Shown: positions 25,431 through 62,278 of the stretch, piece by piece
How positions within the stretch are numbered: the first letter of the stretch is position 1
How the letters are laid out: each line of letters starts with the position of its first letter
Source: Escherichia coli
GTDB lineage: Bacteria; Pseudomonadota; Gammaproteobacteria; Enterobacterales; Enterobacteriaceae
DNA length: 64,000 nucleotides
Reading direction: 5' to 3' (one strand)
Assembly: GCF_009931435.1 (NCBI RefSeq)
Contig: NZ_CP043414.1
Notes under the pieces: model-generated
Database searches by the model: none
Told to the model about the DNA's origin: nothing
What the model saw: only the letters and a program-made list of their open reading frames with translations
Program-made: the position numbers and the translations under genes

Positions 25431-25433
25431 ATG

Positions 25434-43071: not shown

Positions 43072-44286
43072 ATGAAGATCGTAAAGGCTGAAGTTTTTGT
43101 TACCTGTCCGGGGCGTAATTTCGTCACATTAAAAATCACCACTGAGGACGGTATTACGGGCCTTGGGGATGCCACCCTCAATGGACGTGAGCTTTCCGTG
43201 GCCTCTTATTTGCAGGATCACCTTTGTCCGCAGCTTATTGGTCGCGATGCACAGCGTATCGAAGATATCTGGCAGTTTTTCTATAAAGGTGCTTACTGGC
43301 GTCGCGGTCCGGTGACGATGTCGGCCATTTCAGCGGTTGATATGGCGCTGTGGGATATTAAAGCCAAAGCTGCCAACATGCCGCTTTACCAGTTACTCGG
43401 CGGCGCGTCTCGTGAAGGGGTGATGGTTTATTGCCATACCACCGGTCACAGTATTGATGAAGCTCTGGATGATTATGCCCGTCATCAGGAGCTGGGATTC
43501 AAAGCCATCCGCGTGCAGTGCGGAATCCCTGGTATGAAAACCACCTACGGCATGTCGAAAGGCAAAGGTCTGGCTTATGAACCCGCAACCAAAGGACAGT
43601 GGCCGGAAGAGCAGCTGTGGTCGACGGAGAAATACCTCGATTTCATGCCGAAATTGTTTGACGCGGTACGTAACAAGTTTGGTTTTAATGAACATTTGCT
43701 GCATGACATGCACCATCGCTTAACGCCTATTGAAGCGGCGCGCTTTGGTAAAAGCATTGAAGATTATCGCATGTTCTGGATGGAAGACCCGACGCCTGCG
43801 GAAAACCAGGAATGCTTCCGCCTGATTCGCCAACACACCGTCACGCCAATTGCAGTGGGTGAAGTCTTCAACAGCATCTGGGACTGCAAACAGCTGATTG
43901 AAGAACAACTTATCGACTATATCCGCACCACGCTGACTCACGCGGGGGGGATTACCGGTATGCGCCGGATTGCCGATTTTGCTTCGTTGTATCAGGTACG
44001 TACTGGCTCACACGGTCCTTCCGATTTGTCACCAGTCTGCATGGCTGCGGCGCTGCACTTTGATCTGTGGGTCCCCAATTTCGGTGTCCAGGAATACATG
44101 GGCTATTCCGAACAAATGCTCGAAGTCTTCCCGCACAACTGGACTTTCGATAACGGCTATATGCATCCGGGAGACAAACCGGGTCTTGGCATCGAATTCG
44201 ATGAAAAGCTGGCGGCGAAATATCCCTATGAACCTGCTTATCTGCCAGTCGCACGTCTGGAAGATGGCACGCTGTGGAACTGGTAA
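43072..44286 (+). CDS. rspA: starvation-sensing protein RspA (enolase superfamily, mannonate dehydratase-like)
   Basis: ORF 43039..44286; start at [10 protein letters not shown] giving 404 aa. Confidence 0.9.
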
Positions 44287-44297
44287 GGAGTAAGATA

Positions 44298-45317
44298 ATG
44301 AAAAGCATTTTAATTGAAAAACCGAATCAACTGGCAATTATCGAACGCGAAATACCCACCCCGTCAGCGGGTGAAGTTCGAGTAAAAGTGAAACTTGCCG
44401 GAATTTGTGGTTCAGATAGCCATATTTATCGTGGGCATAATCCTTTTGCGAAATATCCGCGCGTCATTGGACATGAATTCTTTGGCGTCATTGATGCAGT
44501 GGGTGAAGGCGTGGAAAGCGACAGAGTCGGTGAACGCGTTGCTGTCGATCCGGTGGTCAGCTGTGGGCATTGCTATCCGTGCTCTATAGGTAAGCCGAAC
44601 GTTTGTACGACACTGGCTGTATTAGGTGTGCACGCTGACGGTGGTTTCAGTGAATATGCCGTGGTGCCGGCAAAAAATGCGTGGAAAATTCCTGAAGCAG
44701 TGGCCGATCAATATGCGGTGATGATCGAACCTTTTACCATTGCGGCTAACGTTACCGGTCATGGTCAACCGACTGAAAATGATACCGTTCTGGTTTACGG
44801 TGCAGGTCCAATCGGCCTGACGATCGTTCAGGTATTAAAAGGCGTCTATAACGTTAAGAATGTGATTGTTGCCGATCGCATTGATGAACGACTGGAAAAA
44901 GCGAAAGAGAGCGGGGCAGACTGGGCGATTAATAACAGCCAGACACCGCTTGGCGAGATTTTCGCTGAAAAAGGCATAAAGCCGACATTAATTATCGATG
45001 CGGCTTGTCATCCTTCAATCCTGAAAGAAGCCGTAACGCTGGCTTCTCCAGCGGCACGTATTGTATTGATGGGCTTCTCCAGTGAACCGTCTGAAGTGAT
45101 TCAGCAAGGAATTACCGGAAAAGAACTCTCTATTTTCTCTTCACGCTTAAATGCAAATAAATTCCCGGTCGTTATCGACTGGTTAAGTAAAGGGTTAATT
45201 AAACCAGAAAAACTAATTACCCATACGTTTGATTTCCAGCATGTTGCTGATGCCATTAGTTTATTTGAACAGGATCAAAAGCATTGCTGCAAAGTCTTAC
45301 TCACTTTTTCTGAATAA
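44298..45317 (+). CDS. rspB: starvation-sensing protein RspB (Zn-dependent alcohol dehydrogenase family)
   Basis: ORF 44274..45317; start at MKSILIEKPN giving 339 aa; GHEFFG and CGxCxxC zinc motifs. Confidence 0.9.
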   Translation: MKSILIEKPNQLAIIEREIPTPSAGEVRVKVKLAGICGSDSHIYRGHNPFAKYPRVIGHEFFGVIDAVGEGVESDRVGERVAVDPVVSCGHCYPCSIGKPNVCTTLAVLGVHADGGFSEYAVVPAKNAWKIPEAVADQYAVMIEPFTIAANVTGHGQPTENDTVLVYGAGPIGLTIVQVLKGVYNVKNVIVADRIDERLEKAKESGADWAINNSQTPLGEIFAEKGIKPTLIIDAACHPSILKEAVTLASPAARIVLMGFSSEPSEVIQQGITGKELSIFSSRLNANKFPVVIDWLSKGLIKPEKLITHTFDFQHVADAISLFEQDQKHCCKVLLTFSE

Positions 45318-45374
45318 TACCAATAACGGCGAGTAAGTAGTACGCATCTTACCTCTTTTTTAGAGATAACCATT

Positions 45375-45467
45375 ATGACAATAGAAAAACACGAAAGAAG
45401 CACTAAGGATTTGGTGAAAGCAGCAGTATCGGGATGGCTGGGCACTGCGCTTGAATTTATGGATTTC
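45375..45467 (+). pseudogene. ydfJ: 5' fragment (31 codons) of ydfJ-like MFS metabolite:H+ symporter gene, truncated by prophage insertion
   Basis: ATG at 45375 gives MTIEKHERSTKDLVKAAVSGWLGTALEFMDF (the G-x-x-LEW/F-DF motif preceding TM1 of MHS transporters), then diverges and stops after 11 codons beside the integrase gene. Confidence 0.5.
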
Positions 45468-45504
45468 AAGAGTCATACGTGTCAACTATTTGATAAATAT
45501 TAAA

Positions 45505-46800
45505 TTAATTTTTCATTGCTTCGTTATGGGGCATGGTTGGGGCAAACTCGCTTAACTGTGTATTTAACAAAGCTACCTGTGCATTATTGTTTTCAGACAT
45601 CCATTTTCCGTATACCTGAAATACCATTTGCGCATCTGCATGGCCCATCTGGTTTGCTATAAATGCTGGGTTAGCACCAGCTGTCAGCGACCAGCAGGCA
45701 TAAGTATGTCTCGACTGATATGATTTTCGATGGCGGAGTCCGGCACGTTTTATCGCTGCGTCCCACATCTGCCTTATTGAGTCAACGGTAAAATGGTCAC
45801 CATAATTTTTTACTCTCGCTGACACTTCAGGTTGAAAAACAAAGGTGCATTTATGTTTTTCTGTTCTGCCATACTCTCTGAGGTGAACATCAATGATATG
45901 CTCTTTGCTCAGTCTCGTTAATGTCATCTGACTCCGGAGAGCGTCGATTGCTGGCTTAATAAGATGAATGACCCGATTGGTTCCCGCCTGTGTTTTTGGT
46001 ACCGTGAAACGGTCTTTTGCTAAATTTCTCCTGATCATCATTGTTCCATTTTTCAGATCTATGTCCTCCCATCCAAGTGCACACAGCTCACCAGGGCGAA
46101 CGCCAGTATAAACAGAAACACACCATAAATTTTTGGCTTGCTGATTTCTGCACGCATCGATAAGACGGATGAATTCCTCCCGCGAAAGAGGATCCGGAAT
46201 GGTTCTTGATTCCTTTAATGGCGAGATCCCCTTAAACGGGTTATCTGCCAGGTAACCGTTATCAACACCAAACTGGAACACGGCGTTAAGATTTGTCATG
46301 TAATTATTTACAGTTACAGCCGATCTCCCTGGTTGTGTAACAATATAGTTACTTTTGGGGATCTGGTATCCAGTCAGTAGCTCTTTACGAACCTCCAGTA
46401 ATTTTTCTTTATTAATCGATGAGGCAAGATTTTTTTCACCGATTATGCTCAGGATATTTTTGATGACGGCACGGTATGTGTTGAGTGATGTTTTTGCGAC
46501 TTCAGTTTCTTTCAGTGCCAGAAATTTTTCAGCCAGTTCTTTTATGGTTAAATCTTGTCGGGCCTCACCAAATTTTTCCAGATTGCGTGAGGAGGGAAAC
46601 TGTTTTGCATAGTCGAAAACACCAGTTTTTATTGCGTAACAAACAGAGGCGCGTAGCTCACCTGCAACGCGCCTGTTTTTTGCTGTGTCAGGAACCCCCA
46701 GGTTTTCCCTGACTCTTACGCCTTTATAAACAAACCAGATACGTAATTTCCCTCCATGGTTTTCCACGCCTGTCGGATATTTCATTTCAACTTCTCTCAT
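45505..46800 (-). CDS. int: tyrosine site-specific integrase
   Basis: 431-aa ORF (start possibly at second Met, 46785); C-terminal RHRKSYQSRHTYAC...VYGKW tyrosine recombinase motifs. Confidence 0.9.
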   Translation of the reverse strand: MREVEMKYPTGVENHGGKLRIWFVYKGVRVRENLGVPDTAKNRRVAGELRASVCYAIKTGVFDYAKQFPSSRNLEKFGEARQDLTIKELAEKFLALKETEVAKTSLNTYRAVIKNILSIIGEKNLASSINKEKLLEVRKELLTGYQIPKSNYIVTQPGRSAVTVNNYMTNLNAVFQFGVDNGYLADNPFKGISPLKESRTIPDPLSREEFIRLIDACRNQQAKNLWCVSVYTGVRPGELCALGWEDIDLKNGTMMIRRNLAKDRFTVPKTQAGTNRVIHLIKPAIDALRSQMTLTRLSKEHIIDVHLREYGRTEKHKCTFVFQPEVSARVKNYGDHFTVDSIRQMWDAAIKRAGLRHRKSYQSRHTYACWSLTAGANPAFIANQMGHADAQMVFQVYGKWMSENNNAQVALLNTQLSEFAPTMPHNEAMKN

Positions 46801-46819
46801 TAGTTAGTGTGGCTTTTAG

Positions 46820-47071
46820 TCAAGTAAGATGACGTCTTGGTCTTGCTGATGCCTGGCGCTCAATCCAGCGATCAATTTCTTCCAGGTTGTAAAAGCATGG
46901 ACTGTTATCCCATGGCATACCGTCATGAGCGACATGCTTATATTCCCTTCCTTCCATAAACGATTTTTCCCGGGCCTTTTTTAACGTACCTTTTTTTATT
47001 CCTTTCAGCGCAATTAACTGCTCTTCGGATACCCATTTGCCGGGAGAGACAATCATGATTACTTCGCTCAT
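46820..47071 (-). CDS. xis: lambda Xis-like excisionase
   Basis: 83-aa ORF directly upstream of int; shares the GREY core with lambda Xis. Confidence 0.65.
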   Translation of the reverse strand: MSEVIMIVSPGKWVSEEQLIALKGIKKGTLKKAREKSFMEGREYKHVAHDGMPWDNSPCFYNLEEIDRWIERQASARPRRHLT

Positions 47072-47143
47072 CGATTTCTTTATCTCTTACATCAGACGAG
47101 CGCCGGTTGCAGAATACCAGTCACAACCGGCGACAGTTGAACA

Positions 47144-49615
47144 TTAAGAATCAGCCTGACTCGGGATCAGTTTTTGCCAGATAGCTGAAACGCATTTTGC
47201 CTGGTAACGGGCGTCATCAAGTGCATTATGGCGCTCACCTTCGAATGGAATAGCCGTTCTGGCATCGAAGTCTATGGCTTTCCCCAGCTCAACGATTGTG
47301 CGTACATCGCGATCGTTGTAGTAACGCCACGGGCAGGGGATCCCCTGCCGTTCGTATGAACGGCGCAAAATCGTGTTGTCGAAGTTGGCTCCATTTCCCC
47401 AGACCTGAACAAAAAATTCACCGGAGTTTTCGTCGATAAATTCCCGCAATTGTAACAGTGCATCATCTAACGGGATTTCATCGGTCATAATGGCAGATTG
47501 CGCTTCGCGTGATTGTTTAAGCCACCATTTAATGGTGTCCCGATCAATGACTCCGCCAGCAGTTTCCAGATCGATAGTCTTACTAAATTCCGGTCCCATA
47601 TCTCCGGTTTGCGGATCGAAAAATATTGCACCTATTGAGATAATCGGGGCATCGGGATTTTTTCCCATGGTTTCAAGGTCGATCATCAGATGAATCCCCG
47701 CTCTGCTGGTGGATGTGAGATTATGATGACCGTTCGCCTTAATTAAGGGATCTGACGCCTCGCCAGTTTCACTATCGCTGGCATGATGCTGATTGCCGCC
47801 AGTGTTCTCCTTGTGCTGATGCGCAGTGCCTTCCATTTCCTCCGGATCATTTTCCTGAACTTCAGGCTGATTCTCTCCATCGAATATTTCCTGGTATGTT
47901 GCGTCACCCATCACCGCACCACAATCAGGGCAGTTGCCGCCACCGCTATGACCGCAGGCGGTGCAGATCTTTTCCGGTTCCTGTTGCACTACTGGTTCAG
48001 GTTGTTTCGTTTCTGGCTCGTTTTGTTGCGTATTTGGGCTGTTTTGTTCCGCTTTCTGGTCGTTCTGTTCCGTTTCTTGCTGGTTCTGGTTCACAGAATC
48101 GCGGGTCTGGATCCCCTTAACCCATTTCGGATCATTCGGGTCGCTAATCCCTTCAACAAATTCACCACGTGATACTGCAAGCAGTTCATCGGCGTCAGGC
48201 TGGCTGATATTGGCTGCCTGCATAATTTTGTTTACTTCGTCAGCGGTAACTTTTACTGACCCTGGTTGTGCGGTCGTGTCAGATGCACCAGTATTTTGTT
48301 GTGAACCTGAGTATGTACCGTTTTTGCGGGCGAAATATTCTTCTTTCGTGATTTCAGTAGCCCCAGCAGACAGCGCCTTATCCAGACCAGAAAGTTTGTT
48401 TGCGCGACCGTATTTTTCGCCATCCTTGTCGGTGAAGAGGAAGTAGAACGGCCCCTCACGTTCTACAGATGGTTCGACTTCCACTTTGCATTCGGTTTTT
48501 TCGTTGTCTGGAATTGCCGTTTCCACTGCATCAGTTTCTGGTACTGGCGACGAGAGAGTATCAGTTGCGCTCTGATTTGTTCCTTCATCTTCAAACACGC
48601 CCTTTGTAGTCAGGTATTCAGTAATGTATTTGTTCAGTGCCACAGGGTCTTTGTGAATGTCGATCGGACGTTCACGGACAAGGCCAAAAATAGTCTGGCG
48701 GTCGTAGCGAAGGGCATCAGGCTGTTTGCGCATTGATGCCGAGATACGCTTCCAGTCTTCGCGGTCGTTGTCGATAACTTCATTTTTTGCCCAGCGATGG
48801 ATGCTGCCGTCAATGTTTCCGGCATCTACATCACCAGGCCAGAGAGCGTAGGCCAGTTCGTCATCCAGTGTTTTCCATGTCTGCTTGTATTCGCGATGAA
48901 TGGCAGCAATGACCGGGTTGATTTTTCCTGTTGAATTTTCAGTGTGCTGTTGATTGGCTCTGGCGCGGGCGAGATCAACAACAGACGTGTATTTTCCGGC
49001 TTCCTTGCGTTCACCTTCGCGACGTTTTTTCCAGATGCGCATCTCTGCCTGAATTTCGGGCCATTTGGCACCAGGCTTACATTTATGCTTAACCCACCCG
49101 ATGGCATGCAGCTTAAGCTCCGGATACATAGCGTTAACTTCTGGCATTTTCATCAACGCTTCAACGATATGGCCGTCGAATGTTGCCATGTCTTCCTGCA
49201 ACAATTCCTGTGCGCTAATCACCATATCAACAGTGATGTTTTCACATGTGTGGAACTTAACCATGACAGCGTTCTGTACTTCAGGGGCTAGGTTGTCAAA
49301 AGTGACGTTCATCGGATCGGATTCAGTCTCGACCGGGACAAAGGAAGCAGACGCCTCATCCCAGCGGTTTTCCTGCATATATTCAGCATCCCAGGAATCG
49401 AGGGCAGGGCGGGGTATACCGGGTTTATCCTCGCAAACAAGAAATTTATAAGCGCAGTCCTGAGCAGCCGGATAATGTTCCAGGAATTGCCAGTGAAATT
49501 TTGCGCGGGCGCGACGTTCATCACCGGCTTCAATGGCAGTGGCTACAGCGACGGCACCTTCTTCCTTTATTGCCTGTTCGTCCGGAATGGCGGCGCAAAT
49601 AAAGACTTTACTCAT
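47144..49615 (-). CDS. prophage exonuclease with C-terminal DEDDh 3'-5' exonuclease domain
   Basis: 823-aa ORF; MIDLETMG (Exo I), WGNGANFD (Exo II), H-x4-D (Exo III); CTACG...CPDCG zinc knuckle; Q/E/N-rich linker. Confidence 0.8.
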   Translation of the reverse strand: MSKVFICAAIPDEQAIKEEGAVAVATAIEAGDERRARAKFHWQFLEHYPAAQDCAYKFLVCEDKPGIPRPALDSWDAEYMQENRWDEASASFVPVETESDPMNVTFDNLAPEVQNAVMVKFHTCENITVDMVISAQELLQEDMATFDGHIVEALMKMPEVNAMYPELKLHAIGWVKHKCKPGAKWPEIQAEMRIWKKRREGERKEAGKYTSVVDLARARANQQHTENSTGKINPVIAAIHREYKQTWKTLDDELAYALWPGDVDAGNIDGSIHRWAKNEVIDNDREDWKRISASMRKQPDALRYDRQTIFGLVRERPIDIHKDPVALNKYITEYLTTKGVFEDEGTNQSATDTLSSPVPETDAVETAIPDNEKTECKVEVEPSVEREGPFYFLFTDKDGEKYGRANKLSGLDKALSAGATEITKEEYFARKNGTYSGSQQNTGASDTTAQPGSVKVTADEVNKIMQAANISQPDADELLAVSRGEFVEGISDPNDPKWVKGIQTRDSVNQNQQETEQNDQKAEQNSPNTQQNEPETKQPEPVVQQEPEKICTACGHSGGGNCPDCGAVMGDATYQEIFDGENQPEVQENDPEEMEGTAHQHKENTGGNQHHASDSETGEASDPLIKANGHHNLTSTSRAGIHLMIDLETMGKNPDAPIISIGAIFFDPQTGDMGPEFSKTIDLETAGGVIDRDTIKWWLKQSREAQSAIMTDEIPLDDALLQLREFIDENSGEFFVQVWGNGANFDNTILRRSYERQGIPCPWRYYNDRDVRTIVELGKAIDFDARTAIPFEGERHNALDDARYQAKCVSAIWQKLIPSQADS

Positions 49616-49707
49616 TTTGTTTTACCTCATTACAGATTTAAGGGTGAACAAATCCCTGCCATTGCTGGCATATAAGAATGAAATCGGATGTTTATTACGG
49701 AACTGTT

Positions 49708-49899
49708 TTAAAGACCTGCCGGGATTTCGTTATTATCCTGGTGAATAACTTTATCGACCGGGTAACAGTTACCGGGAATTTTCTGTTCGGTTGCTGCAGT
49801 CACACACTCCTGCATTGTCCTGTGAACACTGACTGCAATATCAACTGGCTCTCCGGAAACAAGAAAAACTGTCAGAACAAGTGCAAATGCTGTATTCAT
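49708..49899 (-). CDS. ydfD: small lysis-inducing protein YdfD-like
   Basis: 63-aa ORF from MNTAFALVLTVFL (hydrophobic N-terminus); start overlaps dicB stop in ATGA. Confidence 0.6.
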   Translation of the reverse strand: MNTAFALVLTVFLVSGEPVDIAVSVHRTMQECVTAATEQKIPGNCYPVDKVIHQDNNEIPAGL

Positions 49900-50084
49900 T
49901 GCCAGCATCCTTTTTGTATCGGACGTAAACGGGCCAACATTGAAAGAATGCATATTTTATTTAATAGCTCCCGTTCGTGTTTTCTCTTGTTAATGGCATC
50001 TTCAGTAAATACAGGGTTACTGATAGTGACACCAATTTCAAAACAACCTTCAGACGTATTAACGTTTGGTAATAACGTTTCCAT
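49896..50084 (-). CDS. dicB: cell-division inhibitor DicB
   Basis: 62-aa ORF METLLPNVNTSEGCFEIGVTISNPVFTEDAINKRK..., recognised DicB. Confidence 0.85.
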   Translation of the reverse strand: METLLPNVNTSEGCFEIGVTISNPVFTEDAINKRKHERELLNKICILSMLARLRPIQKGCWQ

Positions 50085-50255
50085 TATCGCGTCCTCAACA
50101 ATGAATTTTGTGATGCGGTGCCTGGTGCTTCCAGGTGACGTTAACCAGTTAACAATTAACGCCGGATACAGAGAATCCACCCATAACACTGTTTTTGGTT
50201 TTAACTGTTCCGCGTGCGCTCAGCCGCATTCACCGCATCACAAAATTCACTTTAA

Positions 50256-50311
50256 AAAGGGCGGCAGAGCAGTCACGGAGTAAAACTGATACCGCCAAAC
50301 GTCACCAGAAA
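50256..50311 (-). ncRNA. dicF: DicF small regulatory RNA
   Basis: Minus strand reads TTTCTGGTGACGTTTGGCGGTATCAGTTTTACTCCGTGACTGCTCTGCCGCCC plus T-run, matching DicF as recalled; about 170 nt upstream of dicB. Confidence 0.75.
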
Positions 50312-50652
50312 ATTGATAACAGAGGGCGTTGCAGCGGGGTTGTCACTTAAGCGTATGGTCAACCTGACAACCCGGTGTCCTCAACGGGGGAAGGAATAAC
50401 CCCGCCATACTTACCGCCGCGCCATTTCGCGGATTGCCACAACCGGAAGCGCACGGTCGACGAAAATTTAACGACAGGCTATCTATGAACCAGCTACCTC
50501 GCCGTGCGCTTTCGCGTTATGGTCTGACTTTTCAGGGAAATATCCTTTCAGTAAACTGTCAGTGCCGGATGCTCACCCGTGTCCGGCGCAAGCACTCCAC
50601 CTTACCCGTGGAGAACTCCTTAATTACCAACCTTAGCTTCGTTGGTTAGCTA

Positions 50653-50871
50653 TTAACGCGGGTATGTAATCATTCTGGCAATGGTTAATGCCGCTGCTTT
50701 TTCCAGATTGGTGATATCCTGCTCCAGAGAGGACAGATTTTCAGCCTGCTTAGCCCTGACTTCATTAGCCCATTTCAGATCCTGCGCTGCATTAATTTTC
50801 TGGTGCATCCACTCATAAAGTTCATCATTGGTATAGTCTGGCGCGATGATGACGGGTTCTCGTTTCTGCAT
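50653..50871 (-). CDS. ydfC: YdfC-like prophage protein
   Basis: 72-aa ORF in the dicB operon position. Confidence 0.6.
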   Translation of the reverse strand: MQKREPVIIAPDYTNDELYEWMHQKINAAQDLKWANEVRAKQAENLSSLEQDITNLEKAAALTIARMITYPR

Positions 50872-50900
50872 ACTGATTCCTCGCGGTGCTGTTTCGCTTA

Positions 50901-51029
50901 TCAGCCATTAGATTTTGCCGAACTGGAAAGCGCCTGTTTAAATTCGTTGAAGCTGTGAGCTTCTTCGCCTTCGGCAAGGCCTTCGAAGTATTCTTCGTAA
51001 GCCTTTTCCATGATTGTGTCGAAATCCAT
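50901..51029 (-). CDS. ydfB: YdfB-like small acidic protein
   Basis: 42-codon ORF (MDFDTIMEKAYEEYFEGLAEG...) found by manual translation; below ORF-track cutoff. Confidence 0.5.
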   Translation of the reverse strand: MDFDTIMEKAYEEYFEGLAEGEEAHSFNEFKQALSSSAKSNG

Positions 51030-51030
51030 A

Positions 51031-51186
51031 TCACCCACCTGAATTTCTTTCCAGCCAGCGACGCGCTCCAGATTCGGTTTTAAACGTTTTGCTTTTGGTA
51101 TACGTCATTGCGGTGAACGTACCGTCCTGGTTGGGGAACACGCCACATACCAGAGATTCGCTGTTGCCAAGATTGATAGTATCCAT
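51031..51186 (-). CDS. ydfA: YdfA-like prophage protein
   Basis: 51-aa ORF from MDTINLGNSESLVCGVF; first gene downstream of the repressor. Confidence 0.6.
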   Translation of the reverse strand: MDTINLGNSESLVCGVFPNQDGTFTAMTYTKSKTFKTESGARRWLERNSGG

Positions 51187-51451
51187 GCTGACCTCATTTC
51201 CCCTTAACGCCGGGGTAGCGGAACAAAAACCTGCTGCATAGTTATTAAAGTTGTACCCTGCCGTCATGTTCTTACGCCTCGGGCTGGCTACTTAACCCCT
51301 GACCACTGCCTGGTAACTCGAAGTATTGCCCTGCATTCTGTGGAGCGGGGTGAGTTGGTATGAAAAGAAGGATACCCATAGGTATTTAAAAAGTAAATAC
51401 CCATGGGTGACTTTTTGCAGTGTCTTAACTGGTGACTAGTTGTTTGGTGAG

Positions 51452-51871
51452 CTATGATGCGTTTTGTGCTTTCTTTTTACGGATTTCTTCGTAGATCATA
51501 TTGTAATACTGTTTTTTCTCTTCAAGAGTTTTTAATAAGTTATCCGCTTCACTTTCTGGCAGTTCGTCTAAGAGATCTAAAAAAATACGTTGTCGTGGCG
51601 TTAGAACCCTTGTTTCATAACTGGAGGCTGTGTTCGTTGATGATGAAACGATACCATCCATCCATCCCCGGGGTAACCCAAAGGACTCTTCGATAATCTC
51701 CACCATATCATCAGCGATCCGTTTTTTTCCCTTTTTCCCCTCTGGGTACAACATTCTTGATACATAAGAAGGCTCGCGCCCGATCTTTCTGGCCACGTTA
51801 ACCGCTTTACCATCGCATTTCTCATCACGAATTTTGATGAGTTGCTGTCGTCTAAATTCATATTTGTCCAT
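51452..51871 (-). CDS. prophage repressor, DicA-like C-terminal domain with distinct N-terminal HTH
   Basis: 139-aa ORF; HTH-like VARKIGREPSYVSRM; C-terminal LDLLDELPESEADNLL resembles DicA; no SD before ATG. Confidence 0.7.
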   Translation of the reverse strand: MDKYEFRRQQLIKIRDEKCDGKAVNVARKIGREPSYVSRMLYPEGKKGKKRIADDMVEIIEESFGLPRGWMDGIVSSSTNTASSYETRVLTPRQRIFLDLLDELPESEADNLLKTLEEKKQYYNMIYEEIRKKKAQNAS

Positions 51872-51971
51872 AGGTAAATAATAGATGCGATTACTGCAAG
51901 GTAAACAACCTGTGGGTATTGACTTTTGTTTACCTGTAGGTATTCTTTGCTGTGTTTACTAAGGAGTAGCT
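51872..51971. promoter_or_regulatory. divergent promoter/operator region of the immunity switch
   Basis: AGGTAAATAA (51873), AGGTAAACAA (51899) and inverted TTGTTTACCT (51927) repeats around TTGACT; AAGGAG RBS for cro-like gene. Confidence 0.5.
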
Positions 51972-52253
51972 ATGGAAGAATTAAGAATATTTCTCAATTC
52001 TCTTTCGTCAGATGAACAGCGTATGTTTGCATGCGAGTGTGGTACCAGCATCGGTTATCTAAGAAAGGCATTGAGTAAAGGTCAAGTGTTAGGGGCATCG
52101 TTATGTGTCCTTATTGAGCGAGCCAGTAATGGTGAAGTTACACGTCAGCAACTAAGGCCTTTTGATTGGATGAATATTTGGCCCGAGCTGGAAGATACCA
52201 AAACGTTAACACAACCACTTTCTAGGAGCTTGATTCATGAAAATCAAGCATGA
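51972..52253 (+). CDS. Cro/YdaS-like HTH regulator
   Basis: 93-aa ORF divergent from repressor with AAGGAG RBS. Confidence 0.65.
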   Translation: MEELRIFLNSLSSDEQRMFACECGTSIGYLRKALSKGQVLGASLCVLIERASNGEVTRQQLRPFDWMNIWPELEDTKTLTQPLSRSLIHENQA

Positions 52254-52662
52254 ACACATCCGCATGGCGATGAATGCCTGGGCGCATCCGGACGGTGAAA
52301 AAGTTCCGGCAGCTGAAATAACCAGGGCTTATTTTGAACTGGGTATGACGTTCCCAGAACTGCATGACGACAGCCATCCGGAAGCCCTGGCTCGCAATAC
52401 CCAGAAAATTTTCCGCTGGGTAGAGAAAGACACCCCTGATGCAGTTGAAAAAATTCAGGCGTTGTTACCAGCGATCGAAAAGGCAATGCCACCTTTGCTG
52501 GTGGCCAGAATGCGCAGCCACAGTTCAGCTTATTTTCGGGAGCTGGTGGAGACGCGGGAGCGACTGGTGAGAGACGCTGATGATTTTGTCGCAGTGGCAA
52601 TCGCCGGTTTCAATCAGATGAACCGTGGTGGCCCGGCAGGAAATGCTGTGGCAGTGCATTGA
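52237..52662 (+). CDS. YdaT-like (CII-like) regulator
   Basis: 141-aa ORF starting MKIKHEHI as in Rac YdaT (recalled); 17-nt overlap with preceding gene. Confidence 0.55.
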   Translation: MKIKHEHIRMAMNAWAHPDGEKVPAAEITRAYFELGMTFPELHDDSHPEALARNTQKIFRWVEKDTPDAVEKIQALLPAIEKAMPPLLVARMRSHSSAYFRELVETRERLVRDADDFVAVAIAGFNQMNRGGPAGNAVAVH

Positions 52663-52733
52663 GTGATAATAGCCATATCGAATCGCTTCCGGCAACTCGT
52701 GAGTAAAAAGATTCGGTATCAGAAGAGGTGAGT

Positions 52734-53804
52734 ATGGCTAACGCCTGGCTCAGATTATGGCATGACATGCCAAATGACCCTAAGTGGCGAACAATTGCCA
52801 GGGTGTCAGGGCAGCCAATTGCAACAGTGATGGCAGTGTATATCCACCTCCTGGTGAGCGCGTCACGAAATGTCACGCGAGGTCACATTGATGTCACGAC
52901 AGAAGATTTGGCAAGTGCGCTCGACGTGACAGAAGAGGTAATTGATTCAATTTTGCAGACGATGCAGGGGCGGGTACTTGATGGTGATTTAATCACTGGA
53001 TGGGAAAAACGCCAGGTGCTTAAAGAGGACAACGGCAATATTTCGCAAACCGCAAAATCTCCTGCAGAGCGCAAGAGGGCGCAGCGAGAGAGGGAAAGAA
53101 AGCGGGAACAAAATGGCGATTGTCACGGCGCATCACGAAATGTCACGCACATGTCACGACGAGTCACGACAGATAAAGATACAGATAAAGATACAGATCA
53201 AGAAGATCAAAACACTATGGTCCATGGCGTAAAAAACGCTACGAACCAGGCAGGGGATGTTCAGACCGTCAATCCTGGTCAGCCAGCAGGCACGACACCG
53301 GAAGCCGATTCAGCGTATGCGCTGAAACCCGATTCGGGCGCTGTGCAGCAGGTGATGACCCAAAGGCCGGAACAATCACACCAACTGCAGCAGCCTGAAG
53401 CCGATTCCGCCATTCAGCGGGAAGCCGATCGGGTAGTCCCGGAAAACACCGGGCTGTCTGTGGGACGAGTGGATTATCCGGATGTGTTCGAACAGGTCTG
53501 GCGGGAGTACCCGTTGCGTGCCGGAGCAAACCCGAAGAAATCCGCTTTCAGTGCCTGGAAGGCCAGATTACGCGAGGGGGTGCCACCAGAGGCCATGCTG
53601 GATGGCGTGAGGCGTTACGCAAGATACTTGGCGGCTACCGGGAAAACGGGAACGGAATTTGTTCAGCGAGCGACGACGTTTTTTGGACCGGACCGGAATT
53701 TTGAGAACCCCTGGTTGCTCCCGGTAAGCGGCACGAACAACCAGCGTTGTGTGAATCATATTTCTGAACCGGATAACGAAATTCCGCCGGGCTTCAGGGG
53801 GTAA
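52734..53804 (+). CDS. replication-module protein (YdaU-like, putative initiator)
   Basis: ORF 52728..53804, ATG at 52734 after AGAGGTGAG; N-terminal WLRLWHDMPNDPKW; contains iteron clusters and an acidic DKDTDKDTD linker. Confidence 0.6.
   Translation: MANAWLRLWHDMPNDPKWRTIARVSGQPIATVMAVYIHLLVSASRNVTRGHIDVTTEDLASALDVTEEVIDSILQTMQGRVLDGDLITGWEKRQVLKEDNGNISQTAKSPAERKRAQRERERKREQNGDCHGASRNVTHMSRRVTTDKDTDKDTDQEDQNTMVHGVKNATNQAGDVQTVNPGQPAGTTPEADSAYALKPDSGAVQQVMTQRPEQSHQLQQPEADSAIQREADRVVPENTGLSVGRVDYPDVFEQVWREYPLRAGANPKKSAFSAWKARLREGVPPEAMLDGVRRYARYLAATGKTGTEFVQRATTFFGPDRNFENPWLLPVSGTNNQRCVNHISEPDNEIPPGFRG
52861..53169 (+). repeat. iteron-like repeats (putative prophage origin) inside the replication gene
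   Basis: GTCACG-type motifs at about 52862, 52872, 52882, 52893 (inverted at 52925) and 53122, 53132, 53142, 53153, 53163; TCACGAAATGTCACGC occurs twice. Confidence 0.55.
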
Positions 53805-53844
53805 GTGTTAATTTCTGGTCATGAGGTAATTTTCAGGAGGGCTT

Positions 53845-54270
53845 GTGGCAAAAGTTTTTACACAAGAAGAGCGGGAAAAAATTAAAGGGCAGGTTGTTGA
53901 ACTCGTACGCCAGAGTGGGCGCGAGACGTTACGACAACTGGAAACTAAAACTGGGGCAACAAGATATCTGATGAGCGTTCTGGCCAGAGAGCTGGTTGCC
54001 AGTGGCGATGTATACAACTCTGGTTACGGGTTATTCCCGTCTGAACAGGAGCGTAAGGACTGGCAAAATGCCCGTAAAAAGCTCTCAAGGGCAAAGCTGA
54101 AGAAACCATCTGCGGTTGATCCGGACCTTATCTGGTCATTACCTGACGGAGAAATACGTCGCTACGATAGTTGTCTAAACATAATCTGTCGCGAGTGCCG
54201 GAAGAGCGAAGTTATGCAGCGCATTATGGCATTTTATCAGGGAAATGTTAGGTATTTTAGACGTTACTAG
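53845..54270 (+). CDS. hypothetical basic protein (141 aa), replication-module associated
   Basis: GTG start 7 nt after CAGGAGG; GC similar to prophage backbone; no family recognised. Confidence 0.55.
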   Translation: MAKVFTQEEREKIKGQVVELVRQSGRETLRQLETKTGATRYLMSVLARELVASGDVYNSGYGLFPSEQERKDWQNARKKLSRAKLKKPSAVDPDLIWSLPDGEIRRYDSCLNIICRECRKSEVMQRIMAFYQGNVRYFRRY

Positions 54271-54497
54271 ATTAAAGGGCATTAGTTCAGATATGCATTG
54301 ACATTTTCATGGCACAAGGTAGAGCTAGCGTGGTTGTTCGCTTTGTGCCAAGAGTGGTCATTGATAATATTTTGGTGGGTTACATCTGTCAATGTTTCAG
54401 GTGATATGATATACAAATAGCCAGACTTAGACTGGCATGCTGTTTATTTTTATATTATGGGTGTGCCACATGGATTTAAAACTTATTGAGATATGAC

Positions 54498-55523
54498 ATG
54501 GATACTTTTCATAATATTTTGCTTGAGCACATAGACAGCCTTTTAAAAGAGAGACTTGATTTATCTGGTGACGCTGATATCGAAAAAGAAATTAATAACC
54601 TAATTCCCAAAATAGTCATTGTCGTTAAAAAATCTCTTATTGGCTCGGCCAATGCAATGCTTAGAGAACATCGTTCTCTTTGTGATGAATTTGTTGAGAG
54701 AAATATTTCAAGATGGGCAGAGGCTTTTGATTTGCTCGAAACACTTATAGTGATATGCACGGAGTCCGGTGAAGAGTTCAATCGTTCTTATAGACCACAA
54801 GCTGCCTCTGAAGAGGATGTGGTTTTTGATTTAGTCGTTCGGCATCACGCAAGAGCTTGCCACATCGCCAACGAAATTTTGTGTCTCTTAAAGAATGGAT
54901 TTGCAGATGCTGCCCAAGCGAGATGGCGAGCACTTCATGAGGTAGCAGCCACAGCTATGTTTATAGCAAAGCATGGAAAAGAGTGTGCTGAGCGCTTTTA
55001 CTACCATGAAGTGGTTGATTCATATACTGGAATGTTGGAACACAAAAAGTACGAGCACCGGTTAGAAGCAAAAGGTCCAACTATTGAAGAAATAGCTGAG
55101 TGCAAAGTTCAATTTGATCTATTAATAAAAAAATACGGCAAAAAATATGCAGATAATTATGGGTGGGCATCTTATATTTTCCCTAACCATAATAAAGTGG
55201 GGTTTGGAGCTATTGAGAAAGATGTTCAGTTAGAACACATGCGCCCTTATTATAAGTGGGCGAGTCAGAATGTACACACCGGTTCCAAGGCAATGAGAAA
55301 TAGGCTTGGTCTCTGTGAAACTGGTGATGATATATTATTGGTCGGGCAAAGTGATTCAGGAATGGCTGATCCAGCCCATGCTACTGCTATTAGTTTGATG
55401 CAGATTACTGTGACACTTTTATTCTTAAAACCAACCATTGATCATGCCGTCATTTCAAAAATAATACAGGATTATTCTGATGAGATTGGAAATGTATTTC
55501 TTAAAATTGATAAGGGTAATTAA
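54498..55523 (+). CDS. orphan AT-rich hypothetical protein (341 aa from ATG; 345 aa from TTG at 54486), function unknown
   Basis: Uninterrupted 1-kb ORF; visibly AT-rich versus flanks (about 38-40% GC by eye); no TM segments, no P-loop; no recognised homologue. Confidence 0.7.
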   Translation: MDTFHNILLEHIDSLLKERLDLSGDADIEKEINNLIPKIVIVVKKSLIGSANAMLREHRSLCDEFVERNISRWAEAFDLLETLIVICTESGEEFNRSYRPQAASEEDVVFDLVVRHHARACHIANEILCLLKNGFADAAQARWRALHEVAATAMFIAKHGKECAERFYYHEVVDSYTGMLEHKKYEHRLEAKGPTIEEIAECKVQFDLLIKKYGKKYADNYGWASYIFPNHNKVGFGAIEKDVQLEHMRPYYKWASQNVHTGSKAMRNRLGLCETGDDILLVGQSDSGMADPAHATAISLMQITVTLLFLKPTIDHAVISKIIQDYSDEIGNVFLKIDKGN

Positions 55524-55905
55524 AAATTGGAAAAGTGATAGTATATTCTTGTTTTTTTACTGGTAATTAAATGTTTTTAAAGTTACTAGTTCACACCTAT
55601 CGAACGTCCGGTCTTCGCCCAAAGCGGACTAGAAGGTTAGCTTGCGTCGGATTTGGCGTATTTAAAGAATCGCTGGTGGTTACTGGTTGTTGTGTTCCAT
55701 TTCTACAGAACAAAATCACAGAAACTATACCCAATAGTTGTATCTCATCAATGATGAGAGAGCCTCATATTTATCAGGACTGGTGTACGTCCAATACAGG
55801 AGGTTGTCGTGCTGGTTCTCAAATGTGCGCTGGCTATTGCAGCTGTAATGGCAATTTATTGTCTTGCTGTTGTTCTTATGGATCGCCTTTCTGATTGATT
55901 TTATA

Positions 55906-56109
55906 TTGGCCAGGTGACGGGAGTTAAGTAGAATGGCTGCGGGTGCTTGAGGCTATCTGTCTCAGGCATGAACACCAAAGGCAGATAGAGAAAAGCCCCA
56001 GTTAACATTACGCGTCCTGCAAGACGCTTAACATTAATCTGAGGCTCAATCTATGAACGGCAAATCTAGGTTAGCCTCTTACGTGCCGAAAGGCAAGGAG
56101 AAGCAGGCT
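55906..56109 (+). promoter_or_regulatory. hok promoter and 5' leader
   Basis: TTGGCC-17 bp-TAGAAT; leader GCGGGTGCTTGAGG (55939-55952) complementary to 3' CCTCAATGCACCCGC (56315-56329), consistent with hok fold-back pairing. Confidence 0.5.
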
Positions 56110-56265
56110 ATGAAGCAGCAAAAGGCGATGTTAATCGCCCTGATCGTCATCTGTTTAACCGTCATAGTGACGGCACTGGTAACGAGGAAAGACCTCTGCG
56201 AGGTACGAATCCGAACCGGCCAGACGGAGGTCGCTGTCTTCACAGTCTACGAACCTGAGGAGTAA
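56110..56265 (+). CDS. hokD: Hok/Gef-family type I toxin
   Basis: 51-aa MKQQKAMLIALIVICLTVIVTALVTRKDLCEVRIRTGQTEVAVFTVYEPEE, near-identical to K-12 HokD/RelF as recalled. Confidence 0.9.
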   Translation: MKQQKAMLIALIVICLTVIVTALVTRKDLCEVRIRTGQTEVAVFTVYEPEE

Positions 56266-56333
56266 GAGACTTGGCGAGGGAGAAATCCCTCGCCACCTCT
56301 GATGTGTCAGGCATCCTCAATGCACCCGCACTT

Positions 56334-56358
56334 AACCCGCTTCGGCGGGTTTATTTTA
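56334..56358 (+). terminator. intrinsic terminator of hok mRNA
   Basis: AACCCGC-TTCG-GCGGGTT hairpin followed by TATTTTAT. Confidence 0.7.
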
Positions 56359-56723
56359 TCTGTAAATATTTTTATAAAAATAATGCCCACACACAGCATA
56401 AAACAAAAAGTATCACAGATAAAAAAGGAGCGTAATGTGCAGATTTGTTGTTTTCCATATTTACTCACTTTAACATAATCAATATTGATATGGTTGTTGT
56501 TTCGGTGGTTTCAAACGAGATGTTATGGTGATCTGGTAAAATTGCATAACATTAAAATTTAATTTATCTAATCGCTTTTAATAATAAGCGTTGTGTTTAT
56601 CCCAATAATCTGTTGTTTGACTTTTATTCCATTAATGTAGGGGCTTTACACTGGAACCAGTTTATTTATACTTTATACGCCAGCCTGAACAACTGGCACC
56701 TGCTGCGCCAGCAGAGACAACCG

Positions 56724-57002
56724 ATGGCGCACGATACCAAATTACACAATTCTGATGATTCTGCCGTCTTTGCCAGCAGGTGCGGACGGCGTTTTCATGC
56801 ATTCAAATCGGACTGGTTCCAGCATCCACCATGCACTGAAGAGCAGGCTGAATGGATAATTCAGTGTTACCGCAGGCGCGGATACGAGGTTAAAAAAGCC
56901 CTTAGCCTCGACTACCGTCACTGGATAATCTCAGTCAGATTGCCTTACTCCGAACGCCCACCGCGTCCGTCCCACACATTCCAGCAACGCATCTGGAGGT
57001 AA
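56724..57002 (+). CDS. rem: Rem-like prophage protein (start uncertain; ORF opens at 56613)
   Basis: ORF upstream of ydfU in the K-12 Qin rem position; start chosen at first ATG. Confidence 0.45.
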   Translation: MAHDTKLHNSDDSAVFASRCGRRFHAFKSDWFQHPPCTEEQAEWIIQCYRRRGYEVKKALSLDYRHWIISVRLPYSERPPRPSHTFQQRIWR

Positions 57003-57003
57003 C

Positions 57004-58053
57004 GTGCGGGTATTACTTCGACCTGTTCTGGTACCGGAACTCGGGCTGGTGATCGTTAAGCCGGGCCGTGAATCCATGCCGGTATTCCACAATACCCGGT
57101 TACTGGTGGAGCCGGAACCGAAAAGCATGCGTAATCTGCCGTCCGGGGTCGTTCCTGCCGTTGGCCAGCCGCTGGCGGAAGACAAAACATTGCTGCCGTT
57201 TTTTAGTAACGAACGGGTGATTCGTGCTGCTGGCGGCGTTGGCTCATTGTCTGACTGGCTATTACGTCATGTTACATCCTGCCAGTGGCCTAATGGCGAT
57301 TACCATCACACTGAAACAGTCATTCACCGTTATGGTACCGGCGCAATGGTGTTGTGTTGGCACTGCGACAACCAACTGCGTGACCAGACATCGGAATCAC
57401 TGGAGCTGCTTGCTCAACAAAATCTGACAGCATGGGTGATTGACGTCATCCGTCACGCAATAAGCGGTACGCAGGAGCGGGAATTATCTTTGGCTGAATT
57501 ATCCTGGTGGGCGGTCTGCAATCAGGTGGTGGATGCACTACCTGAGGCTGTATCGCGTCGTTCGCTGGGATTACCAGCGGAAAAAATCTGCTCGGTGTAC
57601 CGCGAAAGCGACATCGTACCGGGAGAGCAGACCGCCACCAGCATATTGAAACAACGCACAAAAAATCTTGCACCGTTGCCTTACGCCCACCAGCAACAAA
57701 AACTACCACAGGAAAAGACGGTGGTAAGCATCACCGTTGATCCAGAGTCTCCGGAATCTTTCATGAAGCTGCCTAAACGTCGCCGCTGGGTTAAGGAGAA
57801 ATACACACGTTGGGTTAAGACACAGCCGTGTGCTTGCTGCGGTATGCCAGCCGACGATCCGCATCATCTGATTGGTCACGGGCAGGGCGGAATGGGAACA
57901 AAAGCACATGATCTCTTTGTGTTGCCTTTGTGCAGAAAGCATCACAACGAGCTGCATACGGATACAGTGGCATTTGAAGAGAAGTATGGCTCCCAACTGG
58001 AGCTGATATTTCGTTTTATCGATCGCGCGCTGGCAATTGGCGTACTGGCGTAA
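57004..58053 (+). CDS. ydfU: YdfU-like protein (DUF968) with C-terminal HNH-like Cys/His motif
   Basis: 349-aa ORF, GTG start; CACCG...DDPHHLIGHG...CRKHHNELH. Confidence 0.8.
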   Translation: MRVLLRPVLVPELGLVIVKPGRESMPVFHNTRLLVEPEPKSMRNLPSGVVPAVGQPLAEDKTLLPFFSNERVIRAAGGVGSLSDWLLRHVTSCQWPNGDYHHTETVIHRYGTGAMVLCWHCDNQLRDQTSESLELLAQQNLTAWVIDVIRHAISGTQERELSLAELSWWAVCNQVVDALPEAVSRRSLGLPAEKICSVYRESDIVPGEQTATSILKQRTKNLAPLPYAHQQQKLPQEKTVVSITVDPESPESFMKLPKRRRWVKEKYTRWVKTQPCACCGMPADDPHHLIGHGQGGMGTKAHDLFVLPLCRKHHNELHTDTVAFEEKYGSQLELIFRFIDRALAIGVLA

Positions 58054-58066
58054 GTGGAGAACGAGC

Positions 58067-58819
58067 ATGAACCTTGAAGCCTTACCAAAATATTACTCCC
58101 CAAAATCTCCAAAATTGAGCGATGACGCTCCAGCGACAGGCACCGGTTGTTTAACAATTACGGATGTAATGGCAGCGCAGGGGATGGTGCAGTCGAAAGC
58201 ACCACTTGGGTTGGCCTTATTTCTGGCAAAAGTTGGTGTTCAGGACCCTCAGTTTGCGATTGAAGGCCTGCTAAATTACGCGATGGCACTGGATAACCCG
58301 ACATTGAACAAATTGAGTGAAGAAATCCGGTTACAGATTATTCCTTACCTCGTGAGTTTTGCCTTTGCTGATTACTCCAGGTCTGCGGCAAGTAAGGCTC
58401 GCTGTGAGCATTGTTCAGGTACGGGATTTTATAATGTATTGCGCGAAGTGGTGAAACACTACAGACGCGGGGAATCTGTAATCAAGGAAGAATGGGTGAA
58501 GGAACTATGTCAGCATTGCCATGGTAAGGGCGAAGCCAGCACAGCGTGCAGAGGGTGTAAGGGTAAAGGGATTGTTCTGGATGAAAAAAGAACCCGGTTT
58601 CATGGCGTACCGGTATATAAGATTTGTGGGCGTTGTAATGGAAACCGGTTTAGTCGTTTACCGACCACGCTGGCACGACGTCATGTCCAGAAGCTGGTAC
58701 CAGACCTGACCGATTATCAGTGGTATAAGGGGTATGCGGACGTCATTGGTAAACTGGTAACAAAGTGCTGGCAGGAAGAAGCATACGCGGAAGCGCAATT
58801 GAGGAAGGTGACGAGATAA
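58067..58819 (+). CDS. quuQ: late-gene antiterminator Q-like protein
   Basis: ORF 58037..58819; start at MNLEALPKYY (250 aa); four CxxC zinc-finger repeats. Confidence 0.85.
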   Translation: MNLEALPKYYSPKSPKLSDDAPATGTGCLTITDVMAAQGMVQSKAPLGLALFLAKVGVQDPQFAIEGLLNYAMALDNPTLNKLSEEIRLQIIPYLVSFAFADYSRSAASKARCEHCSGTGFYNVLREVVKHYRRGESVIKEEWVKELCQHCHGKGEASTACRGCKGKGIVLDEKRTRFHGVPVYKICGRCNGNRFSRLPTTLARRHVQKLVPDLTDYQWYKGYADVIGKLVTKCWQEEAYAEAQLRKVTR

Positions 58820-58850
58820 ATGATTTTTGCTGAAGATGGCGACATGATGT

Positions 58851-58879
58851 TTGCATTTTTCAAAAAATATGGATAAAAT
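58851..58879 (+). promoter_or_regulatory. candidate late promoter (pR'-like)
   Basis: TTGCAT-17 bp-TAAAAT, about 30 bp after Q stop and 50 bp before a strong terminator. Confidence 0.35.
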
Positions 58880-58926
58880 TTTTTCAACGATGGGCTTTGT
58901 ATACCCGACGTTAAGAAAAAGTAGAA

Positions 58927-58955
58927 AACCCGCTGATGAGCGGGTTTTGTGCTTT
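58927..58955 (+). terminator. intrinsic terminator after Q (tR'-like)
   Basis: AACCCGCT-GATG-AGCGGGTT stem followed by TTGTGCTTT. Confidence 0.7.
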
Positions 58956-59240
58956 AAATGGGGCAATGGTAATGTTGAATCTCATCCCGGGACTCATGTC
59001 TGTTAACTTATTATTTAGCTGGTGACTTGGTTATTTGCCTGATGTTTAAAATGTTTTCTTCCAGTACAATGCCCCTAAACACAATGAGTCTGCTTATTAT
59101 ATTATTAGCAGAGCTATTACGGCCAAAGTACAGCATAAGCTTTTAAAGCCAATCAACCAGTCATCAAGACAGACGGGGTTATTCATAAAAACTCTCCATG
59201 TGTGATCCGATGGGGCCTGAAATTAAAGCTTTAATATAGC

Positions 59241-59453
59241 TCATGAAAGGTAAACATTGGCAGCTGAAGGGCCACGCAGACCATTTATCCGGCAAAATTC
59301 CACGCGTAATCCGGTGGTAATTTCTTCTGCATCGCGGAGATTGAGCGCTGAAACATGAAGCTGGACATCGATACGACCATCGGATGGGGTGATAAGACCC
59401 TTGCCGCTTTTGCCGTCAAAGGTTTTGACAATTCCTGTCATTTTACGGGACAA
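59241..59453 (-). CDS. cspF: cold-shock-domain protein CspF-like
   Basis: 70-aa CSD ORF divergent from cspB. Confidence 0.85.
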
Positions 59454-59753
59454 AAAAATTCCTTAATACTGATAACTTGGCGCACTATACACACGTTCCT
59501 GAAGAAAGCTATAGTTTTTTGATGGGGTTGAAGATGGCTGGATGTCTAAAATAAACATTGCTTCATATGTTCAACTATGCGTTAATGATTGCGTCGGTTT
59601 GAAGAACAGACGATATACGAAGTAGTTTACTAAAGCAGTTCTCATTTCAGGTGTTATTCACTTATTCCTTCTTTGAGTCTCTCCAATTAAGTACGAAGTC
59701 GTTTCTGTTATGCAAACCATTTATGCCGAAAGGCTCAAGTTAAGGAATGTAGA

Positions 59754-59969
59754 ATGTCAAATAAAATGACTGGTTTAGTAAAATGGTTTAACGCTGATAA
59801 AGGTTTCGGCTTTATTTCTCCTGTTGATGGTAGTAAAGATGTGTTTGTGCATTTTTCTGCGATTCAGAATGATAATTATCGAACCTTATTTGAAGGTCAA
59901 AAGGTTACCTTCTCTATAGAGAGTGGTGCTAAAGGTCCTGCAGCAGCAAATGTCATCATTACTGATTAA
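59754..59969 (+). CDS. cspB: cold-shock protein CspB
   Basis: 71-aa ORF with RNP1-like KGFGFI motif; about 300-nt upstream leader typical of cold-shock genes. Confidence 0.9.
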
Positions 59970-60250
59970 AATTCATCGCTCGTCTGTATACGATAACGAA
60001 GAAGGCTGATGCCTGAGTAGAGATACGGACAGAGTAGTGAATATTGGATTTCTTTAATAAAAATTAAGGAGGTCCAATACATGAAACAATGGCCAGCATA
60101 TTTGGCAAAATCTTAATCAGGAAAAGTATGCTAACCATTGTGGTGAAGTGCAGGTTTGCTGCATGAATAGTTTTACAGCAGAAGCTAACTGCTGGCATGG
60201 CAAAACAAAGTGCGTAAGTGGATGACTCCCACAAAAAGCACCACAATCTC

Positions 60251-60275
60251 AAACCCGCTCAGGCGGGTTTTTTAT
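60251..60275 (+). terminator. intrinsic terminator
   Basis: AAACCCGC-TCAG-GCGGGTTT hairpin followed by T4. Confidence 0.7.
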
Positions 60276-60332
60276 TATCTGCTTTAAATATATTATTAAA
60301 ATATAAAAAATACTTGTTACTAATAAAATCAA

Positions 60333-60503
60333 TCAGGCTACAGCTTTAAGATTTGTCTGGAATACTTTGTTGCAATGAGGGCAGATCAAAAGGGCACCTT
60401 TTTGTACTCTTGAAAAACTGTGTTCTGACTCTTGGGTGCAGTTTGGGCAGGAACATTTAACGAGATAATTACGGCGTGATTTTGAGTCTTTACGTTCTGA
60501 CAT
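60333..60503 (-). CDS. ydfK: YdfK/YnaE-like zinc-ribbon protein
   Basis: ORF 60333..60554; start at MSERKDSKSRRNY (56 aa) with AGGAAA RBS; CSCPNC...CPHC. Confidence 0.6.
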   Translation of the reverse strand: MSERKDSKSRRNYLVKCSCPNCTQESEHSFSRVQKGALLICPHCNKVFQTNLKAVA

Positions 60504-60722
60504 AGGCTTTTCCTGTATAAATGGCCGTATACAGTACACTAAATATGAAAACATTTCTCGTATTATTATTTTATATATGACTTTCTTTCAAAATAATTAC
60601 TCACATTTTTAATGTGTATGTTTCTTTAGCGCCGTTGAGAACAGCGTGTGCTGTCAAAACTACCCCGTAGACTCCGATCTTTTCAAACATATTGCACCAT
60701 CCGTGTACATCGGGGTGAGGAT

Positions 60723-60938: not shown

Positions 60939-60942
60939 TCCA

Positions 60943-61254: not shown

Positions 61255-62278
<1,024 letters not shown>

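Follow-up and report, generated by a model that had tools for sequence, protein, structure and literature searches.

Where does the host chromosome end and the prophage begin downstream of rspB in this Escherichia coli genome, and at which bases did the integrase join the two? The window considered here (the whole 64,000-nucleotide stretch analysed, from contig NZ_CP043414.1 of assembly GCF_009931435.1) had been read, from its letters and open reading frames, as carrying a prophage junction 93 bp into a ydfJ-like transporter gene, followed by an attachment (att) core confined to 45468-45504. We conclude with little reservation that the segment from 45452 to about 45545 is the attL of a Qin-type lambdoid prophage inserted in ydfJ, with strand exchange within an 11-bp core. 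The junction thus holds, while the position assigned to its core does not.

A transporter gene interrupted after 31 codons

The genes speG, ynfB, ynfA, rspA and rspB follow one another in the window from about 41.4 kb, and from malI to rspB the window shares gene order and every gene coordinate with the annotated chromosome of STEC308. The interval 13026-13955 (minus strand), placed by collinearity with L008, is ordinary context. The host side of the junction comprises two features:

44298..45317, plus strand: rspB, last intact host gene before the junction, from the list of open reading frames and from identical annotated coordinates in the collinear STEC308
45375..45467, plus strand: 5' remnant of ydfJ, 31 codons (MTIEKHERSTKDLVKAAVSGWLGTALEFMDF) making up the B arm and the core, base for base those of the intact E22 gene

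In E22, ydfJ is uninterrupted over 456 codons, is annotated as 'MHS family MFS transporter YdfJ', and encodes a protein matching PF07690 and PF00083 in Pfam. Not a single base differs between the window and the rspB-ydfJ region of E22 from 45300 to 45467, a stretch including the 57-bp intergenic region and the 31 codons opened by the ATG at 45375. This bears out the 31-codon transporter match noticed from the sequence, as well as the position of the junction, since identity to ydfJ ends after 93 nt (45467). Divergence starts at 45468, where the window reads AAGAGTCATACG and ydfJ reads CAGTTATATTCG, and the two sequences are unrelated from there on. When a 1-kb query starting at window position 45000 is compared with genomes carrying an intact ydfJ, the match ends at query 468-471, corresponding to window 45467-45470. 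Rather than a full-length 12-TM MFS transporter, the window side therefore retains 31 of 456 codons, a disrupted remnant.

Could such a short match be a coincidence, or could the frame be an independent small gene unrelated to the disrupted ydfJ? The equivalent frame is annotated in K-12 as a separate gene, ynfP, and YnfP is among the small proteins detected experimentally, its tagged product being seen by immunoblot (PMC6001520, Table 1). This expression is nevertheless the expected output of a retained ydfJ promoter and ribosome binding site (RBS), and the tail of the frame past codon 31 is phage DNA, with a stop position that depends on the strain (36 or 42 aa). Taken together, about 150 identical bases, upstream region included, and the conserved position of the gene in the order speG-ynfB-ynfA-rspA-rspB-ydfJ imply that the match cannot be due to chance, and the rest of ydfJ picks up at attR in related genomes, so that a reading of the frame as anything other than the start of ydfJ is barely credible. 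A scan of 45150-45750 for consensus promoters and terminators returned no sites, a result that speaks neither for nor against a ydfJ promoter or an int terminator.

The core lies within the host-identical stretch

An att core is by definition common to attB and attL. Being shared by both, it has to occupy the last bases identical to ydfJ, and not those beyond them. Its limits were mapped by a four-way alignment of attL (window), attB (E22), attR (STEC308 and K-12) and attP (the free phages mEp460 and Tritos). As the attR of the present genome lies outside the window, that of the 99.7%-identical STEC308 (L003, around position 26795) was used together with that of K-12; among the best 15 records listed, none matches the window exactly, the closest being 99.7% identical over 20 kb. 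The alignment delimits the following segments (no strand assigned):

45457..45467: exact common core, 11 bp (TTATGGATTTC), sole block identical in attP, attB, attL and attR
45452..45467: extended core, 16 bp (TGAATTTATGGATTTC) in its attB/attL form, 15/16 bp with a 1-nt indel
45468..45504: first 37 bp of the P' arm, matching mEp460/Tritos attP base for base beyond the right edge of the core, with no relation to attB/attR

The 11-mer is unique within the 64-kb window, is also present at attL and attR of K-12, and is the longest exact string common to the attL and attR neighbourhoods of STEC308. The extended core of attP and attR is TGAATT-ATGGATTTC, one T shorter, giving the general form TGAATT(T)ATGGATTTC; the attB form can be written GCTTGAATT(T)ATGGATTTCCAGTT, and the attP core is TGAATTATGGATTTC, the aligned contexts being aaaaacacctgtgaaTTATGGATTTCaagagtcatacgtgtc for attP and cactgcgcttgaatTTATGGATTTCcagttatattcgctc for attB. 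Matches to the free-phage attP begin at window 45452, and in genomes where ydfJ is split, the two parts of the gene aligned to attB have query 286-301 in common, the same 16 bp.

On either side of this core, attL consists of attB to the left and attP to the right, and attR of attP to the left and attB to the right. More precisely, attL combines the host-type TTT with the phage-type A at 45468, and attR the phage-type TT with the host-type C; this segregation places both strand exchanges within the 11-mer. The one-base indel lies at the left core edge (45452-45458, GAATTT, versus GAATT in attP, L005:1501-1506), and the TTT at attL and TT at attR are kept in the window, STEC308 and K-12. Located outside the crossover segment, such a heterology would persist through every cycle of integration and excision. 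The annotated ends of the K-12 'cryptic prophage Qin' match these limits to the base: on the attL side the first base of P', on the attR side the final base of the core. At attR of both STEC308 and K-12, the direct repeat of the core (TGAATTATGGATTTC) is followed by ydfJ from codon 32 onward; the repeat anticipated at the other prophage end was accordingly found in relatives, the window itself stopping short of attR.

What then of the 37 bp between the end of the ydfJ identity and the integrase stop? In favour of a core in this interval (45468-45504), it carries no int coding sequence, is AT-rich and abuts the junction, and att is found just downstream of int in many phages. It matches the P' flank of attP at every base, however, and bears no relation to attB or attR; in STEC308, the neighbourhood of attR contains no 12-mer from it, and sequence common to all four att sites is restricted to 45452/45457-45467. 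That the core lies there is extremely improbable: the interval is P' arm, which attP contains and attB and attR lack. For prophage boundary calls in general, the core belongs in the stretch that is still identical to the host gene, and not beyond it.

A 7-bp overlap region deduced from dyad symmetry (TGAA...TTCA) was considered and dropped, the spacing differing between attP and attB, and the bound stays at 11 bp. A core-like sequence, ACCTGTGCATTATTGTTTTCA, stands inside int at 45575-45595 (L005:1623-1643), at a distance of 127 bp from the true core on its right side. Its similarity to the 21 bp covering the end of the P arm and the core of attP is 86%, and it may be a chance resemblance or a secondary site. 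Other repeats of the attP region (D5, D3 and inverted repeats) led to no interpretation.

Proposed formation of the junction

The insertion lies in ydfJ between rspB and ydfI and leaves the 5' end of the gene beside int, an order shared with K-12 and STEC308. A phage of the mEp460 type would have brought an attP with core TGAATTATGGATTTC, and a heterobivalent tyrosine integrase would have recombined it with the near-identical TGAATTTATGGATTTC, which forms codons 26-31 of the host ydfJ, the strands being exchanged inside TTATGGATTTC (45457-45467). On the window side, integration would have left the ydfJ promoter, its RBS and 31 codons fused to the P' arm, creating a 42-codon open reading frame that faces int. 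On the attR side, the rest of ydfJ would run from an in-frame ATG (Met29) within the core, deprived of the host promoter and of half of the first transmembrane helix; the attR of the present genome would read ...CACCTGTGAATTATGGATTTCCAGTTATATTCG..., followed by ydfJ codons 32-456.

It may be asked whether such a junction was produced by the integrase at all, or whether it is secondary, resulting from homologous recombination between tandem or different prophages, or from a deletion. Clusters and inversions of ydfJ prophages are documented (PMC8112680), O157:H7 FRIK804 displays an attP-like P-core-P' junction beside a truncated integrase, and the prophage of the window is mosaic relative to mEp460 past its first 5 kb. 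However, the attL of the window is an exact B-core-P' hybrid, with no base added or missing compared with attB and attP, and mosaicism acquired later within the prophage would leave the junction unaffected. A secondary origin is thus given very little credence, and integrase-mediated insertion is retained.

This agrees with earlier descriptions of the locus. According to PMC6379469, 48% of strains carry Qin, inserted at the 5' end of ydfJ, which deprives the gene of its promoter and of 28 codons. For ydfJ prophages, the S7 Fig legend of PMC8112680 mentions an att of 18 or 19 bp derived from attP, attL, attR and attB, and, as far as this legend goes, the sequence TGAATT(T)ATGGATTTC[A/C]AG, equivalent to window 45452-45470, would fit it. 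The junction, the disruption of ydfJ, the prophage boundaries and the definition of att are already in the K-12 record and the literature, and nothing in them is new.

Integrase, excisionase and candidate arm sites

Two recombination genes adjoin the P' arm:

45505..46785, minus strand: int, intact tyrosine integrase of 426 aa, its open reading frame reaching an ATG at 46800 (426-431 aa)
46820..47071, minus strand: xis, excisionase of 83 aa, PF06806 (DUF1233 family, E = 1.6e-31), annotated as such in relatives

The gene next to the junction had been called an integrase, and Pfam matches agree: PF12167 (Arm-DNA-bind_2, E = 5.6e-24) covers residues 4-67 and points to an N-terminal arm-binding domain, and PF00589 corresponds to the catalytic domain (E = 3.8e-18). 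An alignment with the structure of the Tn1549 Int (6emy) spans the catalytic domain, including TGVRPGEL, PKTQ, SRHT and GH..Y, residues that were located by eye. The protein is identical to the mEp460 integrase at 425 of 426 residues.

Two candidate protein-binding sites are found in the P' arm:

45483-45495, minus strand: candidate IHF site, perfect match to WATCAANNNNTTR (L005 1531-1543)
45527..45544, plus strand: paired candidate arm-type sites for Int, TGGGGCA-N4-TGGGGCA, within the 3' end of int

The motif TGGGRCA-N4-TGGGRCA has only two copies in the whole 45.9-kb mEp460 genome (at 24624 and 24831); these flank the attP core, at ~135 bp on its left and at about 60-75 bp on its right. It occurs once in the 64-kb window (45527) and at both attL and attR in STEC308, and is invariant in the 91%-identical O157 relative. 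This pattern of position and conservation suggests that Int would bind the TGGGRCA repeats. As the candidate P' pair falls within the last int codons, the P' arm probably runs on into the 3' end of int, and the functional att would not be bounded by the int stop. The perfect match at 45483-45495 is no more than suggestive of IHF binding, as a scan of the attP region with the IHF consensus gave a total number of matches below the shuffled mean, without enrichment.

Phage lambda has its arm-type sites P1/P2 on one side of the core and P'1-3 on the other, and the paired direct repeats at ~-135 and about +60 to +75 of the core described here occupy similar positions. The likeness extends to the tyrosine integrase, which is heterobivalent and has its arm-binding domain at the N-terminus, to the shortness of the common core, and to the placement of xis beside int. 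Lambda differs in its core sequence and host site, the Qin-type site being within a coding region, and the 1-nt indel at the left edge of the Qin-type attP and attB cores has no counterpart there. Unlike in lambda, the int stop is 37 bp from the core and the P' arm sites overlap the int coding sequence, and Xis belongs to the DUF1233 family (PF06806) and not to the lambda Xis family.

Relatives and state of the prophage

Four free phages with complete genomes of 45-48 kb and full head and tail modules, mEp460_ev081 (LR597641), Tritos (OV696610), HannyBb (PP925841) and PhiR42_1 (PV340562), are 98.8-99.8% identical to the window over int, xis and the P' arm, and the attP of mEp460-type phages supplies both the P arm seen at attR and the P' arm seen at attL. 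Over about 5 kb encompassing int, xis, the recE-like exonuclease and the dicB region, window 45452-50518 is 99.3% identical to mEp460 24757-29818; the boundary is sharp, and beyond about 50.5 kb the prophage becomes a mosaic whose segments are 83-97% identical to mEp460 or absent from it.

To the right of the junction come a recE-like exonuclease gene, dicB, DicF, ydfC, hokD/sok, ydfU, an antiterminator gene and cspB/cspF, then the lysis genes essD and rrrQ, followed by cspI and gnsB. These names were taken from the annotation of STEC308, which is 99.7% identical to the window and collinear with it over 44000-64000; with the matches in Rfam, they indicate that the content of the Qin early region is present:

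50259-50310, minus strand: DicF RNA (RF00039, 76.7 bits), part of the early leftward operon and located upstream of dicB, an arrangement shared with K-12 Qin
55941-56115, plus strand: sok antitoxin RNA (RF01794, 110 bits), adjoining a hokD-type toxin gene
59593-59985, plus strand: cspA-type thermoregulator leader (RF01766, 158.8 bits), matching cspB
62496-62881, plus strand: cspA-type thermoregulator leader (RF01766, 113.8 bits), matching cspI

The best known inhabitant of this site is Qin of K-12 MG1655 (NC_000913.3, 1632277..1652745; ydfJ b1543, intQ b1579, ynfP b4534). Its B arm and 11-bp core are identical to those of the window, the first 40 bp of its P' arm contain two SNPs, and it has the same neighbours as the window, rspB and the dicB/DicF early region, on the two sides of the junction. 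In the K-12 record, Qin is flanked on one side by the 5'-truncated ydfJ and on the other by the pseudogene intQ, ynfP and rspB. The differences are as follows: intQ lies beside an IS2 fragment and the recE-like ydfE is also a pseudogene, whereas int of the window is intact (426 aa), and the immunity/replication region is distinct from that of K-12 Qin, the closest relative, STEC308, listing no relBE beside hokD.

In STEC308, the distance from core to core is 26,178 bp, and this 26-kb remnant has lost most morphogenesis genes, carries truncated terminase and tail fibre genes, and harbours an IS2. Since the closest relative is in such a state, the element of the window is almost certainly defective as a phage, despite its intact int and xis. 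Both genes are near-identical to those of the living phage mEp460 (a preprint presents mEp460_ev081 as temperate and functional; bioRxiv 10.1101/2023.04.14.536235), and, judging from their sequences, this copy may still be excisable, unlike K-12 Qin.

The chimeric reading frame

The fusion of ydfJ to the P' arm creates a frame of its own:

45375..45503, plus strand: chimeric open reading frame of 42 codons, 31 from YdfJ and 11 phage-derived, homologue of K-12 ynfP (b4534, 36 aa)

As had been read from the window, the frame degenerates after codon 31 and stops just ahead of the integrase stop, 2 nt before it: its TAA occupies 45501-45503 and the minus-strand int stop 45505-45507, so that the two genes converge with a single base (45504) between them. 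The K-12 ynfP translation is MTIEKHERSTKDLVKAAVSGWLGTALEFMDFKSHAC. At 45481-45485, the window has GTGTCAAC and K-12 GTGTTAAC, and this C-to-T change creates an earlier TAA, which explains why ynfP has 36 codons in K-12 against 42 in the window. The phage-derived tail of the frame is evidently not conserved.

Does the retained ydfJ start serve any purpose? Because the chimeric frame ends one base from the int stop, transcription driven from the host side would run antisense into int. One could imagine that the ydfJ promoter and RBS thereby direct host transcription antisense into int and the P' arm, restraining int expression or the assembly of the excision complex specifically in lysogens, or else that a YnfP-like peptide carrying half of TM1 has a membrane function of its own. 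We regard this proposal as a long shot; if true, the antisense brake would be a functional analogue of the sib retroregulation of lambda, made from a host promoter.

Distribution and clustered ydfJ prophages

How common is this arrangement? The 1-kb query across the junction finds matches in 5154 of the 5426 complete E. coli genomes; the same attL with the same type of integrase is present in 2662 of the 5426, and an uninterrupted attB in 2011. The attL counts agree with the 48% prevalence published for Qin (PMC6379469). About half of complete E. coli genomes carry the junction and ~37% an empty site, which makes ydfJ a major and polymorphic hotspot of prophage insertion. Beyond correct annotation, the importance of the present case is slight.

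The PPydfJ prophages of STEC/EPEC (Nakamura et al. 2021, PMC8112680) occupy the same integration locus as the element of the window; they carry T3SS effector loci and are often in tandem clusters, and their integrase is ~91% identical to that of the window at the DNA level. In O157:H7 FRIK804 (NZ_CP034384.1, L004, ~2990-3060), the attP-like P-core-P' junction stands beside a 5'-truncated integrase that is ~91% identical, with IS66/IS256 and dinI on the left side. This junction is probably a seam in a cluster of ydfJ prophages, tandem or rearranged, and the arrangement is consistent with the tandem ydfJ prophages of PMC8112680.
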